A stretch of 11,127 nucleotides of DNA. It comes from a virus. Lineage: Duplodnaviria; Heunggongvirae; Uroviricota; Caudoviricetes. The stretch lies in IMG/VR virus record IMGVR_UViG_2713896903_000008. One strand, given 5' to 3'. This document shows, piece by piece, positions 2,139-9,200 of the stretch. The notes under the pieces were generated by a model. That model saw only the letters and a list, made by a program, of their open reading frames with translations. It was not told the origin of the DNA and made no database searches. Numbering within the stretch: the stretch's first letter is position 1; each line of letters opens with the position of its first letter. The translations under genes were made by a program, and so were the position numbers.

Positions 2139-2528
2139 ATGAAAACGATTGCAGAACAAATAGGCGAGCGCCTAAAAGCCACTCGGCTAAATCGAGGATT
2201 AAGTATGGGAAACCTGGCAAAACTATGTGGTTGGTCAGGTTCTTCTCGTATTGCTAACTACGAAGCTGGCACCAGGAGTGTGGGGGCTGAGGATGCGATC
2301 ATCCTCGGCCAAGTACTAGGCATTTCCCCCGCAGAATTAATGTTCGGTGAACAGGAAAACACGTACTCATGGTTAAATGATAACCAGAAAAAAATGCTAG
2401 AGCTGTTTAATCAGCTCCCGGGATCAGAACAAGCACGCATGATTGATCTGTTCGAAATCCGTCTTCAAGAGCTTGATGAGTATGTGGAAAAATATCTAAG
2501 AAGCAGGCAACAGAAAAAATCCTCCTAA
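2139..2528 (+). CDS. cI-like HTH (XRE-family) prophage repressor, ~129 aa (RacR position); no S24 peptidase domain recognisable
   Basis: The track ORF starts at a TTG at 2034, but its first 35 codons overlap the Cro-like start and promoter and translate to low-complexity sequence. Start is taken at ATG 2139 (MKTIAEQIGERLKATRLNRGLSMGNLAKLCGWSGSSRIANYEAG). HTH followed by a ~60-aa helical C-terminal region. Followed by an intrinsic terminator. Confidence 0.75.
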   Translation: MKTIAEQIGERLKATRLNRGLSMGNLAKLCGWSGSSRIANYEAGTRSVGAEDAIILGQVLGISPAELMFGEQENTYSWLNDNQKKMLELFNQLPGSEQARMIDLFEIRLQELDEYVEKYLRSRQQKKSS

Positions 2529-2587: not shown

Positions 2588-2640
2588 GTCCATCAAAAAT
2601 CCAAAAACAACATTGCTCACATATTGAGTTGACAAATCAC

Positions 2641-2653
2641 TCACGATATGTGA
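2641..2653. promoter_or_regulatory. Third copy of the immunity operator, inverted (TCACG-ata-TGTGA = reverse complement of TCACA-tat-CGTGA), just downstream of a consensus -35 TTGACA (2629-2634)
   Basis: Read directly from the sequence. Its position relative to TTGACA places the operator over the spacer/-10 of a plus-strand promoter aimed at ydaG-ydaF, i.e. a PL-like position. Confidence 0.5.
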
Positions 2654-2834
2654 GCATTTGCCATATCCAAACAACGCCCCACCAGAGAACGGCAGGACAA
2701 TACCTTGAGTTATCCAGCCACTGAACAGGGCTAAGTAGCCAGCCTGAGGCATACGAACATGACGGCAGTTGTTGATTGATACAAAGCGCAGTAGATAAAA
2801 CGTTCCGCCACCCGGCGTTAAGGGGAGAGATAAG

Positions 2835-2969
2835 ATGGTGCATTACGAAGTAGTTCAGTATTTGATGGATTGTTGCGGCATCACTTACAACCAGGCTGTG
2901 CAGGCTTTACGCAGCAACGACTGGGATCTCTGGCAGGCAGAAGCCTCTATCCGCAACAACAAGATGTGA
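2835..2969 (+). CDS. ydaG: Small protein YdaG-like, 44 aa (below ORF-track cutoff); predicted three-helix UBA-like fold
   Basis: ATG 2835 preceded by GGGGAGAG Shine-Dalgarno; translation MVHYEVVQYLMDCCGITYNQAVQALRSNDWDLWQAEASIRNNKM; stop TGA 2967-2969. Length and position match what I recall for Rac ydaG. Confidence 0.6.
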   Translation: MVHYEVVQYLMDCCGITYNQAVQALRSNDWDLWQAEASIRNNKM

Positions 2970-2979
2970 GGTGCGAAAA

Positions 2980-3135
2980 ATGCAAAAAATCGACCTCGGC
3001 AATAACGAATCCATTGTGTGCGGCGTGTTCCCCAACCAAGATGGAACGTTCACTGCTATGACGTATACCAAAAGCAAAACATTTAAAACAGAAACTGGTG
3101 CGCGCCGATGGTTGGAGAAGCACACAGTAAGCTAA
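2980..3135 (+). CDS. ydaF: Small basic protein YdaF-like, 51 aa (below ORF-track cutoff)
   Basis: ATG 2980 preceded by GAGGTG; translation MQKIDLGNNESIVCGVFPNQDGTFTAMTYTKSKTFKTETGARRWLEKHTVS; stop TAA 3133-3135. It lies 10 nt after the ydaG stop and overlaps the convergent sieB stop by 4 bp. Confidence 0.6.
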   Translation: MQKIDLGNNESIVCGVFPNQDGTFTAMTYTKSKTFKTETGARRWLEKHTVS

Positions 3136-3620
3136 CGATTAAAACGTCTACTCCTGCTGTTCCAGAATAACTTCATAAAATGGGAGTATTTTTCGGTGAC
3201 GAGATAATAAGAACAGTTTGCGCTATCACTCTGATGTTGAATGATGCCCTTCCGTTCTAATTTTTTCATAACCGGGTTACGGCAAGGAGAAGTGATAATA
3301 AGATTTCCTGTTTTAAGGAAATCTTTAAATACAGCGATTTCTTTCTCAGATAAACGAAGCAATACTCGTTGCTCTGGTAGTAATGAATAATGCTTTTGAA
3401 TATGTGCTCGCAATCTTGAGAAGGAAATGGCGACCACGAAAGAAAAGGCAAAAACGATAATCTGAAAGAGCCAAGGTATTTCAGTATAAGCATTGAATGC
3501 GACAGTAAACTCTTTCGGTATCAGCCCGAGAGTGAGACCAAAAATGATAATCGTATACATAAGTCTTTCGAGTGGCTCGTTAGCAAAAAGTTTCAACAAT
3601 GGAGTAAATACATCCAACAT
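3132..3620 (-). CDS. sieB: Superinfection exclusion protein B (SieB), 162 aa, membrane protein
   Basis: Translation from ATG 3620: MLDVFTPLLKLFANEPLERLMYTIIIFGLTLGLIPKEF, recognised as SieB with hydrophobic segments. The track ORF extends to 3743 (203 aa), but the 41 extra codons run through GC-rich hairpin sequence and look non-coding. Confidence 0.85.
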   Translation of the reverse strand: MLDVFTPLLKLFANEPLERLMYTIIIFGLTLGLIPKEFTVAFNAYTEIPWLFQIIVFAFSFVVAISFSRLRAHIQKHYSLLPEQRVLLRLSEKEIAVFKDFLKTGNLIITSPCRNPVMKKLERKGIIQHQSDSANCSYYLVTEKYSHFMKLFWNSRSRRFNR

Positions 3621-3838
3621 ATCAATAACTCTCAACTGTAAGGGTATTGAAATGTTAACACAAGCTCTCGCTGTAGGGGTATAGCCGAGACCACCGAAGC
3701 CCGGAGGTGGTGAAATAAAACCGGGCACAACACGAAGGCGCATTTCCGATATCCATAAAGAGTCGGTCTTGTCTGTTAAATTTAAATGGTGGGAGTGCGC
3801 CTCCGGTTGTAAATAACGACATTGCTGTGTGTAGTCCT

Positions 3839-3886
3839 GGCGGCATCAGTTTTTTTCTTGAAGTTCGGCTGATGTCCGCCCTTTTT
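3839..3886 (+). terminator. Terminator-like GC-rich hairpin with T-run in the sieB-kilR intergenic region
   Basis: GGCGGCATCAG (3839-3849) pairs with CTGATG-T-CCGCC (3869-3880): 11 bp with one bulged T, 19-nt loop, followed by CTTTTT (3881-3886). Only the plus strand has the U-run. Confidence 0.35.
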
Positions 3887-4060
3887 AAAGTGAATTTTGT
3901 GATGCGGTGAATGCGGCTAAGCGCACGCGGAACAGTTAAAGCTAAAAACAGTGTTATGGGTGGATTCTCTGTATCCGGCGTTAATTGTTAACTGGTTAAC
4001 GTCACCTGGAGGCACCAGGCACCGCATCGACAAAATTCATTTGTAAAAATGGAGATAATT

Positions 4061-4282
4061 ATGATTACTCATCACTTCGGAACTGATGAAATACCACGTC
4101 AGTGTGTAACTCCTGGCGATTATGTTCTTCATGAAGGCCGGACATATATCGCCTCGGCAAACAATATAAAAAAGCGAAAACTTTATATTCGTAGCCTGAC
4201 CACAAAAACATGCATTTCTGACTGCATGGTTAAAGTCTTCCTCGGTAGTGATGGTTTACCTGTAAAAGCGGAGTCATGGTGA
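4061..4282 (+). CDS. kilR: KilR, Rac-prophage cell-division (FtsZ) inhibitor, 73 aa
   Basis: ATG 4061 with GGAG 5 nt upstream; translation [46 protein letters not shown], recognised as KilR. The track ORF start at 4049 lacks a Shine-Dalgarno. Confidence 0.85.
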
Positions 4283-4452
4283 TGGATAAGAAAATAAAAT
4301 GTGCTTACCACCTTTGCAAAAAAGACGTTGAAGAAAGCAAAACTATTGAAAGAATGCTTCATTTCATGCACGGAACTTTATCAAAAAACGAACCGAGAAA
4401 ATATTGCAGTGAAGCTTGTGCCGAAAAAGACCAGATGGCACACGAACTTTAA
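4282..4452 (+). CDS. ydaE: Small Cys4 (zinc-ribbon-like) protein YdaE-like, 56 aa (below ORF-track cutoff)
   Basis: ATG overlaps the kilR stop (ATGA at 4280-4284). Translation [56 protein letters not shown] with Cys at 7, 12, 42, 46. Stop TAA 4450-4452. Confidence 0.65.
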   Translation: MDKKIKCAYHLCKKDVEESKTIERMLHFMHGTLSKNEPRKYCSEACAEKDQMAHEL

Positions 4453-4526
4453 TTAACTGACTATTCGAAACTGAATTTATGCCAGCAATGGCAGGGATTC
4501 GCTCAACCTTAATTAAGGAGAAAAAC

Positions 4527-4802
4527 ATGATTACCAATTATGAATCCACTGTTGTAACTACTGATGACATTGTTCACGAGGTCAATCTGGACGGAAAGCG
4601 TATTGGCTACGTGATTAAAACAGAAAATAAAGAAACCCCATTCACTGTGGTTGATATCGACGGTCCATCAGGCAACGTTAAAACACTTCACGAAGGCGTC
4701 AAAAAAATGTGCCTGGTGCACATTGGAAATAATCTGCCAGCAGAAAAAAAAGCTGAGTTTCTGGCAACTCTGATTGCAATGAAATTAAAAGGTGAAATTT
4801 GA
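4527..4802 (+). CDS. racC: RacC, 91 aa, function unknown
   Basis: ATG 4527 preceded by AAGGAG (4514-4519); translation MITNYESTVVTTDDIVHEVNLDGKRIGYVIKTENKETPFTVVDIDGPSGNVKTLHEGVKKM, recognised as RacC. The upstream in-frame ATG at 4479 has no Shine-Dalgarno. Confidence 0.8.
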   Translation: MITNYESTVVTTDDIVHEVNLDGKRIGYVIKTENKETPFTVVDIDGPSGNVKTLHEGVKKMCLVHIGNNLPAEKKAEFLATLIAMKLKGEI

Positions 4803-4901
4803 AAAAAGAAAGCCTGCACAGTGTACAGGCCTGAGTGAAAAACCTGGGACATTTATTCATCACTCGCACTAAATTTTAATCTGAGTTGAGGTTAAAAAAC
4901 A

Positions 4902-7900
4902 ATGAGCACTGACAAACAAAATTTTGCGTTACATTGCGACGCGAAAAATGAGGGCGTAAGAAAACGCCTCGGCATCAAAGGCGGCTTCTTCTGGACAGAG
5001 GCAAAAAAACTTTCTGTTGCGGTTTCACGCTGCATTGCTGCAATGGACGATGCTGGCTACGATGAAGATGATTTTAAAAAACCTGTTCGCGTCAATTTTC
5101 CCGTTGTTGATGACCTTCCGCCAGAAGGCGTATTTGATACGGAATTCTGCAACCGTTACGAAAAAGGCGGGGAAGATGGCATCACAATGATATTTATCGC
5201 CCCTTCCCCCTCTGTTCAGGACAAACCAGCCAGCACTGACAACACCAACGTCAACGGCGAAGATATGACTGAGATTGAGGAGAATATGCTACTCCCGATT
5301 TCAGGTCAGGAATTACCTGTTCGCTGGCTGGCACAGCACAGCAGCGAAAAACCGATAACGCACGTTTTACGGGAAGAACTGCGCGCATTACATAACGCAC
5401 AGGATGAAAAACTCCCCGCAGTTACAGCGCTGGCCATCTCAAATAAAGCAGCGCAACTCGAACCGCTGGAGATTCGCAATCTCCACAAACTGGTTCGTGA
5501 CACTGACAAAGTTTTCCCTAATCCTGGTAATTCAGATCTGGGACTGATGACTGCTTTTTTCGAAGCATACCTGGGCGCCGACTACACCGATCGTGGTCTG
5601 CTGACAAAAGAGTGGATGAAAGGGAATCGTGTTTCACGCATCACCCGCACGCCCTCCGGTGCTAATGCTGGCGGCGGGAACAAAACTGATCGCGGGGAAG
5701 ATTTCGTCCACGATCAGGCTTCGCTGGCACGCGATGTTGCGACTGGCATTCTGGCCCGTTCAATGGATGTTGATATTTATAACCTTCATCCGGCACACGC
5801 TAAACGTATTGATGAAATCATCGCAGAGAATAAGCCGCCCTTTTCTGTTTTCCGTGACATATTCACTGCTATGCCTGGGGGATTGGATTATTCCCGCGCC
5901 ATCGTGGTTGCATCCGTGAAAGAAGCACCTATCGGTATTGAGGTTATTCACGCGCACGTCACTGAATATCTGAACAAGGTGCTGATTGAAACCAATCACG
6001 CCAATCCTGATCAGGAAATCGTGGATATTGCTTGCGGCCGTTCCTCAGCCCCAATGCCACAGCGTGATACAGAAGAAGGAAAACAAGGTGAAGAAAAACC
6101 ACAACCATCTGGCGCAATGGCAAATGAACAGGCAACGCCTGAAACAGTGGAACCGGATACAACTGAACATCATCAGAACACGCAGCCGATGGATGCTCAG
6201 CCACAGGTAAATTCTGTTGATGCGAAATATCAGGAACTACGGGCAGAACTCCATGAAACCAGGAAAAATATTCCACCCAAAAATCCTGTCGATGCCGACA
6301 AATTACTGGCTGCCTGTCGCGGAGAGTTTGTTGAAGGAATTAGCGACCCGAACGATCCGAAATGGGTCAAGGGGATCCAGACCCGCGATTCTGTGTACCA
6401 GAATAAGCCAGAAACAGAACAAAACACGCCAGAAACTGAAAAAACCAGCCCGGATGTGAAACAACCTGAGCTGGTAGCGAAACAGGAAGCAGAAAAAATT
6501 TGCACCGCCTGCGGTCAGGCTGGAGGAAATAGCTGCCCTGACTGTGGTGCAGTGATGGGAGACGCAACGTATCAGGAAACCTTTAATGAAGAAAATATGG
6601 ATGAATCTCAGGAAAAAGATTCGGAGAAAATGGAAGACAATAAACATCTGCACAAGAAGAACGCTGGCAACCATCCGCATCACAATTGCAGTGATGAAAC
6701 TGGTGAAGCGTCAACTCCTGTAGCAACTGAAATCATGTGGCCGTCATATTTCGAGCCTGGTCGCTATGAAAACCTCCCGAACGAGGTTTATCACGCCGCC
6801 AACGGAATAAGCAGCACGATGCTGAAGGATGCCCGCATCAGTTTGATGTATTACCACGGGCGGCACATTGCCGGAACTATTCCGTGTGAAGAAAGTGATG
6901 CATTGCTACGTGGACGGATCATTCACAGCTATGTTCTGGAAACGGATAAATTCTCTGATGAATATGCCATTCCGGTACCGGTTCCTGAAGATGTGGTTGC
7001 CACTTCTCAAGAACTGATCGCCATTATTAAAAAACACAATGCCAGTCTGCCAGCACTGATGACACCAGAGCAGATGAAAGAGTGGATCGAAAACTACAAC
7101 AGCACTCTTATTCAGCCACTGTCGGTAAGTGCTGGAGCCGAAGAAACAGGCATCCTTTACGGCTCGCTCCCGGAGGAATTCCGACGTATTCCAGAAGGAG
7201 AAAAACACACTGCATCAGCAATGAAAGCCTGTATTAAAGAATACAACGCAAGCCTCCCCTCTCTGTTGAAAACCAGTGGAACACGGGAGCAACTTCTGGA
7301 GCAAATTGAAACTGTAGATCCAGAACTGGCAAAAAAAGAACGGGCTAAATCTTTGCCTTACAACATCAGTGGTACAAAAGAGCAATTAACCGAAATCGCC
7401 CGGAAAATTCGCCCGGAACTGGTAACACTGGAGGACTGGCAAAAACGCCAGCAAGAAGAAAATGCAGGAAAAACGTTTATCAGTCCAGATATGTATGAAC
7501 AGGCAAAAAATATTCATGCGGCACTGCAAAACAATACTGACGCGGCAAGACTACTCAACCACCCGGATCGCAAATCTGAAATCAGCTATTTCGGGTTTGA
7601 TGAAGAAACCGGGCTGGAAATCAGGGTCCGCCCTGATATCGAAATCCGACTGCCATACGAAAGCATCTGCGCCGACGTGAAATCAGTAAGCTTCGGTTAT
7701 GTGCGGCAAGAACGACTAAAAGATCGCTTACACCGTGAAATTATTGAACGTGATTATCACCTGAGCGCCGCAATGTACTGCGATGTGGCAAACCTGGATA
7801 AATTTTTCTGGGTCTTCGTCAATAAGGATGCTGGCTATCACTGGGTAGCAGTTGTGGAAGCCTCGCAGGAACTCCTGGAACTTGGTCGACAGGAATATCG

Positions 7901-8027
7901 CCGGACGCTACGCCAGATAAACGAAGCCCTAGAGACAAACAACTGGCCAGCACCGATTACCGAAAGTTACACCGACGAATTAAACGACTTTGATCTTCGT
8001 CGTCTTGAAGCACTGCATCTGGCTTAA
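4902..8027 (+). CDS. recE: Exodeoxyribonuclease VIII (RecE-type 5'-3' dsDNA exonuclease), long 1041-aa form with C-terminal PD-(D/E)XK nuclease domain
   Basis: Single uninterrupted ORF. N-terminal and central regions recognised as RecE-like. The central low-complexity E/K/T/Q-rich linker contains CTACG-x8-CPDC. The C-terminal region has RPDIE ... ADVKSV, matching the PD-(D/E)XK pattern. Stop overlaps the next gene's ATG (TAATG). Confidence 0.85.
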
Positions 8028-9136
8028 TGGAGAACCTGACCATGCAAAATACCAATATCATCACGACAGAGCAGACACCAAATACCATTTCTGCCAGTAA
8101 CACTATTTTTAACGTTCAGGCGTTGACGCAACTTCAGGAAGTAGCCGGGTTGATGTCACAGGCCACCGTCACAGTTCCCGATCACCTTCGCGGAAAACCT
8201 GCCGACTGCATGGCAATCATCATGCAAGCCATGCAATGGGGCATGAACCCCTACGCTGTGGCTCAGAAAACACACCTGGTAAACGGAGTTCTGGGTTATG
8301 AAGCACAACTGGTTAACGCTGTGATCTCTAGCTCAAGTGCAATTGTAGGCCGCTTCCATTACAAGTACGAGGGAGACTGGGAGAAATGCTCTCGCACCCG
8401 AGTGGAGACCGTTAAGAAAACGGCCAAAGGAGGCGGAATCTATGAGAAAAAAGAAACGATCCCATGTTGGACCAGTGAAGATGAGTATGGTCTATCAGTT
8501 CGAGTTGGTGCAGTTCTTCGCGGTGAAAGTGAGATTACCTGGGGAGAACCGGTGTTTCTTTCCAGCGTGATTACGCGTAATTCTCCTTTATGGACCTCAA
8601 ACCCGAAACAACAGCTCGCCTATCTGGCGTTGAAATACTGGGCTCGCCTTTATTGTCCTGACGTCATCCTGGGCGTGTATACCCCCGACGAACTGGAAGA
8701 GCCACAGGAAAAAATCATTAATCCGGTTCAGGAACATAAAAACACATCAGCCTGCCGTGCGGAACGTGAAACAACAATTATTGAGCAGGATGCCGGGGAA
8801 AACTGGATCGATGCTTTCCGTAAACGTATTGAGCAAGCACAAAGCACCGAAGAAACAACGGCACTTCGCCAGGAAGTAGAAGCTCATAAAAATACACTTG
8901 GTGCTCTCTACACAGAACTTAAAGGAAAAGTGGTTCAGCGTCATCACCGTCTTAATGCTATTGCCCGTATCGAGAAGATGATAAATGACCTGCCTTCATC
9001 AGGTGATCCAGAAGCAGAACAAAAATTTACTGCACTGGAAAATACGCTGAATGCTGCACGACCACATTTAGGAGAATTATATGAGGCGTATAAAACGACA
9101 CTGACAGACCTGAAACCAGAATATATCGGCTCCTGA
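8027..9136 (+). CDS. Single-strand annealing protein of the RecT/Redbeta superfamily (Redbeta/Bet-like core plus ~140-aa helical C-terminal extension), 369 aa
   Basis: Core motifs resemble lambda Redbeta: AIIMQAMQWGMNPY versus Redbeta ALLIVANQYGLNPW, and SPLWTSNPKQQLAYLALKYWARLYCPDVILGVYTPDE versus GPWQSHPKRMLRHKAMIQCARLAFGFAGIYDKDE (compared from memory). Alternative start ATG 8042 (MQNTNI) has GGAG 9 nt upstream; the 8027 start is translationally coupled to recE. Confidence 0.75.
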   Translation: MENLTMQNTNIITTEQTPNTISASNTIFNVQALTQLQEVAGLMSQATVTVPDHLRGKPADCMAIIMQAMQWGMNPYAVAQKTHLVNGVLGYEAQLVNAVISSSSAIVGRFHYKYEGDWEKCSRTRVETVKKTAKGGGIYEKKETIPCWTSEDEYGLSVRVGAVLRGESEITWGEPVFLSSVITRNSPLWTSNPKQQLAYLALKYWARLYCPDVILGVYTPDELEEPQEKIINPVQEHKNTSACRAERETTIIEQDAGENWIDAFRKRIEQAQSTEETTALRQEVEAHKNTLGALYTELKGKVVQRHHRLNAIARIEKMINDLPSSGDPEAEQKFTALENTLNAARPHLGELYEAYKTTLTDLKPEYIGS

Positions 9137-9200
9137 TATTTACCATGGCGGTGTAGCCTCGCCGCCATCGCAAAATTATATATTTATGAGAGAAAAGACA

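Follow-up and report, generated by a model that had tools for sequence, protein, structure and literature searches.

The hairpin upstream of kilR in a Rac-like prophage is the terminator of the small RNA KilS, in a cassette related to dicF-dicB of Qin

The hairpin that separates sieB from kilR in an 11,127-nucleotide stretch of viral DNA (IMG/VR record IMGVR_UViG_2713896903_000008; the whole of this stretch is referred to as the window) is the Rho-independent terminator of the Hfq-dependent small RNA (sRNA) KilS and hence an already known feature. Judged from sequence and predicted structure, KilS-kilR corresponds in Rac to dicF-dicB and shares its terminator, RNase III helix, and STnc100-type leader. 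The best explanation for expression of kilR, and probably the correct one, is that the KilS terminator is read through and the RNA is processed by RNases after loss of the repressor, with Rho and NusG serving as a gate and without any N-like factor.

Results

ORF mapping and family searches assigned the window to a Rac-like, lambdoid E. coli prophage, of which it is the early region (Table 1), with the genes in the order of K-12 Rac read in reverse. The stop codons of ydaF (+) and sieB (−) overlap at 3132-3135 in the ORF map, as an earlier note on this DNA had described. That note had also placed a PL analogue near 2629-2657, an assignment supported by the −35 and −10 elements, by a recurring operator motif, and by the near-consensus TTGACA-17-TATAGT found at the aligned position of K-12 Rac. 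The operator motif, TCAC-N5-GTGA, is shared by TCACGATATGTGA and the sequences at 2064-2076 and 2113-2125, both of which lie between racR and ydaS. The PL analogue was absent from the promoter-scan list because its −10 element, GAGCAT, matches at only three of six positions.

Table 1. Features of the window that bear on transcription toward kilR
Feature	Position	Strand	Description
Replication genes and ydaT/ydaS		−	
racR	2139-2528	+	Repressor
PL-analogue promoter and operator	2614-2658	+	−35 TTGACA 2630-2635, 17-nt spacer, −10 GAGCAT 2653-2658
Inverted repeat at PL analogue	2614-2624 / 2646-2656		
Operator palindrome TCACGATATGTGA	2641-2653		Overlaps promoter spacer
ydaG	2835-2969	+	Weak UBA-like match; first gene of early-left operon
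ydaF	2971-3135	+	DUF1391; second gene of early-left operon
sieB	3132-3620	−	162 aa; Pfam SieB PF14163, E 2.4e-30; convergent with ydaF
KilS promoter	3774-3789	+	Extended −10 TGtTAAATT 3774-3782, start G3789; motif read from sequence
KilS sRNA	3789-3886	+	98 nt; 5′ stem-loop, single-stranded seed, terminator hairpin
KilS seed region AAAUAACGACAUUGCUGUGUGUAGUC	3811-3836	+	Resembles RprA nt 50-75; RNase E site 3820
Intrinsic terminator of KilS	3839-3886	+	Stem 3839-3849 / 3869-3880, U5 at 3882-3886
Structured kilR leader, STnc100 family	3888-4042	+	Closed by 22-bp helix
Leader hairpin with three GTTAAY hexamers	3977-4003	+	Hexamers 1 and 3 form the stem arms in the fold model, hexamer 2 the loop
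kilR	4061-4282	+	73 aa, cell-division inhibitor; phrog_294 Kil protein, E 1.5e-35; first gene past terminator and leader
ydaE, racC, recE, recT, ralR, xis, int	Downstream of kilR	+	

The stem of the hairpin is formed by GGCGGCAUCAG pairing with CUGAUG-U-CCGCC, with one bulged U, and is followed by CUUUUU (3881-3886). A GC-rich stem of 11 to 13 bp thus stands directly 5′ of a U-run on the transcribed strand, the arrangement of an intrinsic terminator, with a loop of 15 to 19 nt and a U5 tract followed by A. When folded as RNA, positions 3825-3900 reached −19.5 kcal/mol (z −2.8), a value equaled by 1 of 200 shuffles. The ATG of kilR (4061) is 175 nt past position 3886, and both sequence and folding bear out the GC-rich stem and CUUUUU tail that had been reported ∼175 nt 5′ of this gene. 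The complement of the hairpin also folds (−17.1 kcal/mol, z −4.1) but does so without a U-run, so the terminator is directional and functions on the + strand only. When the + strand was scanned over 2660-9200, which reaches from the PL-like promoter to the recT end, this hairpin was the sole strong candidate with a T-run (−18.7 kcal/mol), the others having an irregular stem (−8.6 kcal/mol) or a poor TTTCTT tail (−14.8 kcal/mol); it is the one strong intrinsic terminator on this path. A consensus terminator scanner accepts loops of up to 8 nt and for this reason alone passed over the hairpin. Its short U-run and large loop point to partial, or leaky, termination; counted against leakiness is the stem, which is more regular than that of DicF (−19.5 versus −15.9 kcal/mol).

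Positions 3600-3935 of the window are 100% identical to E. coli K-12 Rac, for which the RefSeq annotation lists the ncRNA kilS (b4833) at 1418405-1418502, between kilR and sieB. Given this identity, and with the conversion K-12 position = 1422291 minus window position, KilS corresponds to 3789-3886 of the window and its 3′ end coincides with the last U of the run. The RNA 3′ end annotated at exactly this base in K-12 (1418405) supports the hairpin as a genuine terminator. KilS folded at −34.9 kcal/mol (z −3.4). This RNA was predicted from RIL-seq data and verified by northern blot in K-12 (Bar et al. 2021, PMC8175672); it was seen in the wild type, was absent from an hfq deletion strain, and accumulated in stationary phase. 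The same report gives an RNase E site at K-12 1418471 (window 3820) and, citing published genome-wide maps, a start at 1418502 (window 3789), for which the extended −10 motif TGtTAAATT is correctly spaced. The supplements of Adams 2021, which hold K-12 start-site and 3′-end data, contain no entry for these genes.

Rfam yielded two back-to-back matches on the + strand, each below its gathering score: DicF (RF00039) at 3826-3881, with 39.1 bits and an E value of 2.9e-6 against a gathering score of 48, and STnc100 (RF02076) at 3883-4068, with 39.5 bits and an E value of 2.2e-6 against a gathering score of 47. For comparison, DicF of Qin itself scores 76.7 bits, and stand-alone STnc100 copies, which sometimes occur in tandem, score 55 to 80 bits. 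The terminator 3′ arm and the leader are nearly identical to the dicF-dicB spacer of Qin. The window does reproduce the context of DicF, namely a place in a PL-like operon with the conserved leader and then a division-inhibitor gene downstream. It does not have the 5′ and loop sequences that define DicF and that, according to published work, pair with the ftsZ, xylR, and pykA mRNAs; the KilS region 5′ of the hairpin and the loop are unrelated to DicF in sequence. The junction sequence was found at 120 loci in a scan of IMG/VR. The seeds that precede the fixed junction at these loci fall into no fewer than three classes (DicF-type, KilS-type, and one with CAUGUUGAUU), and downstream of the junction the loci carry kil or dicB, in several combinations. 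Fifteen representatives were folded among the 30 distinct junction variants, and in all 15 a GC-rich hairpin was located directly 5′ of the U-run, with altered stems (e.g., GGCGGGUAUC/GAUACCCGCC).

Published work on Qin bears directly on passage through this hairpin. DicF derives from the PL-like dicBp transcript, with one 3′ end made by termination, and the 72-nt DicF made by RNase III ends 19 nt past the terminated 53-nt form. The position 19 nt beyond the U-run of the window falls inside the 5′ strand of the 22-bp leader helix. On derepression of dicBp, cells became filamentous in a manner dependent on both DicF and DicB, and methods that included primer extension revealed no internal promoter (bioRxiv 10.1101/2023.04.14.536235), although an older study, as cited there, had suggested a promoter upstream of dicB. 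Since derepression of dicBp acts through DicF and DicB with no internal promoter, the homologous terminator is read through in Qin without a known phage factor.

Beginning 2 nt past the U-run, the closing helix of the kilR leader pairs 3888-3909 with 4020-4042 and has one bulged base. A fold of 3887-4075 (−63.4 kcal/mol, z −5.45) showed this helix closing a multi-branched domain. By analogy with Qin, the only prophage in which RNase III is shown to cut at this helix, the 22-bp helix is likely an RNase III substrate. The 3′ motif of the domain is widespread in Enterobacterales, as found by scanning one genome per species. Covariation was tested for helices P1, P2, and P5 on the conserved flanks of 61 copies, aligned without gaps. 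Pairing was observed in 93.5% of the cells (82% in shuffles), and 131 cells carried double changes compared to 44 in shuffles, a count not matched by any of 500 shuffles. Double changes occurred in 10 pairs, the covariation score was 0.32 versus 0.12 in shuffles, and sliding the partners by one to three columns lowered pairing to 36 to 49%. The conserved STnc100 fold, consisting of the closing helix, P2 with its bulge, and the 3′ CCNGG hairpin, was recovered, with the window row forming 19 of 19 pairs; three compensated pairs set its P2 hairpin apart from the common type. Among otherwise near-identical copies, the middle of the leader is hypervariable, in keeping with the proposal of differing seeds in STnc100 and PasD RNAs (Zhu, Shabalina and Storz 2026 preprint). 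Three GTTAA(C/T) hexamers to which attention had been drawn are indeed present in the leader (GTTAAT 3980-3985, GTTAAC 3987-3992, and GTTAAC 3996-4001). According to the fold model, they are a hairpin of the conserved RNA leader and not a protein site; K-12 Rac has GACUGUAAUU...GGUUGCAGUC at this hairpin, and the alignment indicates that pairing is kept via changes on both sides. A c4-icd-type pairing of the variable part of the leader with the start region of kilR or dicB was also considered and was rejected, with −17.0 kcal/mol for cognate and −17.1 kcal/mol for non-cognate combinations.

Nucleotides 23-48 of KilS are identical to nt 50-75 of RprA at 24 of 26 positions, including the 16 consecutive bases AUUGCUGUGUGUAGUC. 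The local score of 40 compares with 12.5 ± 2.1 for shuffles, none of 5000 being as high. This stretch has the same place in both RNAs, directly 5′ of the terminator, and the likeness falls exactly where RNase E trims both RNAs; the site at 3820 would expose the stretch in KilS. KilS-type variants retain the RprA-like seed. RprA is not mentioned by Bar et al. 2021 (PMC8175672). A crude duplex test gave an energy for KilS with the rpoS leader that was no better than with shuffled KilS, and a search for KilS targets inside the window found none. The RprA-like seed of KilS may be new, and we regard it as a lead, not a result.

Expression of kilR and recET has been studied in K-12, where CRISPRi knock-down of racR derepresses ydaG, kilR, ydaE, racC, recE, recT, ralR, xisR, and intR. 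Derepression of the whole operon, as far as intR, rules out the permanent silencing of kilR-recE that the earlier note had put forward as one possibility. The data are steady-state RNA-seq measurements and do not by themselves prove one continuous PL transcript; YdaS/YdaT-dependent effects or prophage excision could contribute to the derepression. In addition, kil is held off by Rho/NusG-dependent termination (Shashni 2014, PMC4150792), and its physiological activation follows from the lowering of NusG by OxyS (Barshishat 2018, PMC5793797). The former study places the critical Rho terminator (trac) inside racR, so that a different upstream source of read-through, the racR promoter, would operate in Rho-defective cells. 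We found no mapping of sbcA mutations in the accessible literature.

Phage-encoded processive antitermination from the PL analogue, needed to pass the KilS terminator plus the 650-nt untranslated antisense-sieB stretch, is unlikely. It would call for an unrecognized N-like protein (e.g., YdaG or YdaF) or a put-like RNA, and the path does hold one strong intrinsic terminator and a long untranslated stretch; moreover, ydaG and ydaF, the function of which is not known, occupy the position of lambda N, and a DUF1391 gene also comes first in the Qin dicBF operon. The searches nevertheless agree with the earlier observation that an N-like gene and a boxA-boxB nut site are not apparent. No boxA-like site (YGCTCTTTA, at most one mismatch) was found in 2600-4100, with six matches window-wide compared to 5.0 expected, and neither Pfam nor PHROGs revealed an antiterminator family for ydaG, ydaF, kilR, ydaE, or racC. 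The PL leader (2659-2840, ∼180 nt) folded no better than its shuffles (z +0.56), and the inducible phage Rac-SA53 keeps KilS-kilR with another gene replacing ydaG and ydaF, which also argues against antitermination. The + strand RNA across sieB is neither C-rich nor G-poor (GC skew 0 to +0.23, G ≥ C) and is therefore a poor loading site for Rho, with no obvious entry site; a composition scan for Rho loading along the path was C-rich only at 2600-2700. The evidence does not call for a dedicated phage antiterminator.

We consider it very unlikely that a separate promoter 3′ of the hairpin (3890-4060) mainly drives kilR and recET and makes read-through irrelevant. The older suggestion of a promoter in the homologous Qin spacer speaks for it, but the Qin primer extension showed no further promoter, and our promoter scan detected no σ70-like site on the + strand of this stretch, which speaks against the cryptic promoter considered for 3900-4060. 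The stretch is instead one compact, covarying RNA fold, kilR is silent in the wild type and responsive to RacR and Rho/NusG, and Bar et al. (PMC8175672) give a start near KilS at 3789 only. The notion of a separate promoter survives in part: one exists on the + strand, but it sits 5′ of the hairpin (start 3789) and not in 3900-4060, and its product, KilS, ends at the hairpin. It is hardly credible that the hairpin acts mainly as a 5′ stem-loop of sieB mRNA, or that KilS is a sas-like antisense control of sieB. The complement of the hairpin folds well, sieB is divergent from KilS, and phage P22 makes PL-strand antisense RNA against sieB, which would favor such a role. KilS, however, lies at least 168 nt from the sieB start codon (3620) with no overlap of the coding region, and it thus lacks the overlap with the sieB translation start that characterizes the P22 sas RNA. 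Furthermore, the hairpin and leader are also found in Qin and Rac-SA53 without an adjacent sieB, and past the hairpin the − strand has a single promoter-like site (3991-3964), which overlaps the GTTAAY hexamers and is not conserved in K-12.

Discussion

Read-through of the KilS terminator followed by processing, the explanation we prefer, builds on several properties established here or in print. The RNA is KilS, with a known start and 3′ end, and it depends on Hfq; the module is homologous to dicF-dicB, and its leader folds as described; silencing of racR derepresses the operon as a whole; and Rho and NusG act as a gate. In the lysogen, KilS would initiate at its own extended −10 promoter, apparently independently of the repressor, and would end at the hairpin. 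The scant read-through RNA would enter the long, untranslated, and highly structured leader, and KilR synthesis would be blocked by the terminator along with host termination through Rho and NusG. After loss of the repressor, and by analogy with Qin dicF-dicB, transcription from the PL-like promoter (∼2630-2658) would cross ydaG, ydaF, and antisense sieB to reach a leaky terminator, at which some polymerases would stop and others continue. RNase E (∼3820) and presumably RNase III, acting in the 22-bp helix past the U-run, would then cut the read-through RNA into a short KilS, a free STnc100-like RNA, and a kilR-ydaE-racC-recET message. The terminator would thereby double as sRNA gene end and attenuator, and the RNase III site would separate the sRNA(s) from the kilR-recET message. 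It is from Qin, by analogy, that we infer for Rac a leaky terminator, RNase III cleavage at the helix, and no requirement for a phage factor.

As a feature, the hairpin is not new, since it terminates an sRNA already annotated in an intensively studied prophage. Regulation of kilR by RacR and Rho/NusG has likewise been published, and studies of K-12 Rac and the homologous Qin operon largely answer how transcription passes to kilR. We did not find the explicit link between KilS-kilR and dicF-dicB stated in the literature examined. This link yields a testable model in which a toxic division inhibitor and recET are silent in the lysogen and are expressed on derepression without an N-like factor. 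Some modest value remains in the RprA-like seed, in the RNase III helix, and in the homology of the KilS/DicF/STnc100 cassette. A fixed chassis, made up of the terminator 3′ arm, the RNase III helix, the STnc100-like leader, and a division-inhibitor gene, is common to KilS, DicF, and at least one other class, and because the 5′ seed and a hypervariable leader segment differ on this chassis, the cassette could be a two-seed platform. That it delivers two exchangeable trans-acting seeds plus a toxin per transcript, with KilS acting on or competing for RprA targets, is a tentative and somewhat doubtful proposal.

Compared to the K-12 Rac prophage, the window represents a distinct Rac-like prophage: the immunity region differs, recE (1041 aa) and recT (369 aa) are larger and of a type also present in the inducible phage Rac-SA53, and the middle of the kilR leader is closer to Qin. 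KilS itself shows no difference from its K-12 counterpart, with the same sRNA sequence, flanks, sieB-kilR position, and 3′ end. The order of repressor, oL/PL, small early genes, opposite-strand sieB, kil, recombination genes, xis, and int is shared with the PL operon of lambda, the transcript of which is likewise antisense to sieB. The N/nut system of lambda, by contrast, has no parallel among the features found in the window (N-like protein, boxA, or boxB), and here the obstacle is also the end of an sRNA gene. Silencing of rac kil by Rho and NusG, reportedly described by Cardinale in 2008, concerns the same gene and likewise makes expression dependent on a failure of upstream termination; the available passages of the Rho/NusG studies of kil deal with factor-dependent termination and do not mention the intrinsic KilS terminator. 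With STnc100/PasD RNAs, the leader of the window shares the closing helix, P2 with its bulged A, the variable middle, and the CCNGGAGGCACCNGG hairpin. It differs in being the 5′ leader of a protein gene with a closing helix lengthened to 22 bp, whereas STnc100 relatives such as L197 are stand-alone genes with their own terminator.

The closest relative is the dicBF operon of Qin. The seeds are unrelated (AUUGCUGUGUGUAGUC in KilS versus UUUCUGGUGACGUUU in DicF), a start site has been mapped for KilS itself whereas processing is reportedly the only origin of DicF, and the gene downstream is kilR in the window and dicB in Qin. The two systems nonetheless have a homologous terminator hairpin with the same 3′ arm, U-run, and ∼165-nt leader, and in both of them 175 nt separate the 3′ end of the sRNA from the ATG of the division inhibitor. 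DicF has an RNase E site just 5′ of its seed, as does KilS, and the Qin genes belong to a PL-like operon headed by a DUF1391 gene (YdfA), like the module in the window with ydaF.

Junction, seed classes and leader

We aligned the 120 IMG/VR loci that share the junction (L004-L123) on the segment listed in the table below, and at least three unrelated seed classes were found upstream of one fixed junction, namely DicF-type, KilS-type, and CAUGUUGAUU-type. The gene downstream of the junction was kil in some loci and dicB in others, and the combinations were mixed. Because seed classes and division-inhibitor genes are mixed around a single junction, the seed-junction-kil/dicB cassette is, judging from these alignments, modular.

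Alignment of 64 leader variants revealed many unrelated versions of a hypervariable segment midway along the kilR/dicB leader, whereas ∼65 nt upstream and ∼70 nt downstream of this segment are almost invariant across phages. Leader-type copies that precede ORFs in further genera (L138 and L125; Lelliottia, Citrobacter) likewise have a long closing helix, of 15 to 21 bp and different in sequence, versus only 6 to 9 bp in stand-alone copies of this STnc100-family RNA; thus, the long closing helix appears to be associated with leader-type copies.

Coordinates of features in the window and in other loci
Feature	Locus	Position	Strand
Predicted PL transcript, first 40 nt	window	2660-2700	+
Terminator-like hairpin	window	2699-2675	-
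Upstream extension of the sieB frame	window	3621-3743	-
RprA-like KilS seed region	window	3811-3836	+
Alignment segment for L004-L123	window	3877-3904	
Fixed junction (3' arm of the terminator and leader)	L004-L123		
Hypervariable leader middle	window	3935-3976	
recE and recT	window	4902-9136	
Four tandem stand-alone STnc100-family elements, Superficieibacter	L197	110-1690	
STnc100-like element, phage P7	L244	2501-2616	
STnc100-like element, phage D6	L245	2501-2621	

STnc100-family copies elsewhere

Four stand-alone elements lie in tandem within 1.6 kb in Superficieibacter (see also L173, L191, and L163), and a Pantoea plasmid likewise bears several copies. Some tandem stand-alone copies possess their own terminator, and no sizeable ORFs were present between tandem copies. 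In P1-like phages, an STnc100-like element is situated in the ban operon between tRNA genes and tciA/tciB, which are annotated as functioning in tellurite or colicin resistance or inhibition of cell division.

Neighboring features of the early region

The KilS seed region matches nt 50-75 of the host sRNA RprA at 24 of 26 positions, including 16 consecutive identical bases, and this stretch adjoins the terminator in both RNAs. The published RNase E site at window position 3820 coincides with the 5' edge of the RprA-like seed; the KilS paper does not mention the likeness to RprA (PMC8175672).

The predicted PL transcript start is C-rich and G-poor (GC skew of -0.27), and on the opposite strand this sequence folds into a terminator-like hairpin. 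This predicted hairpin would provide an end point for transcripts from sieB that extend antisense to ydaF and ydaG. The sieB frame is open for 41 codons 5' of the annotated start, up to an ATG at 3743 (203 aa); the putative extension does not look protein-like. In P22, two in-frame products are made, SieB and Esc.

The recE and recT genes encode 1041 and 369 aa, far more than the 866 and 269 aa in K-12, and the long versions are similar to their counterparts in the inducible phage Rac-SA53.
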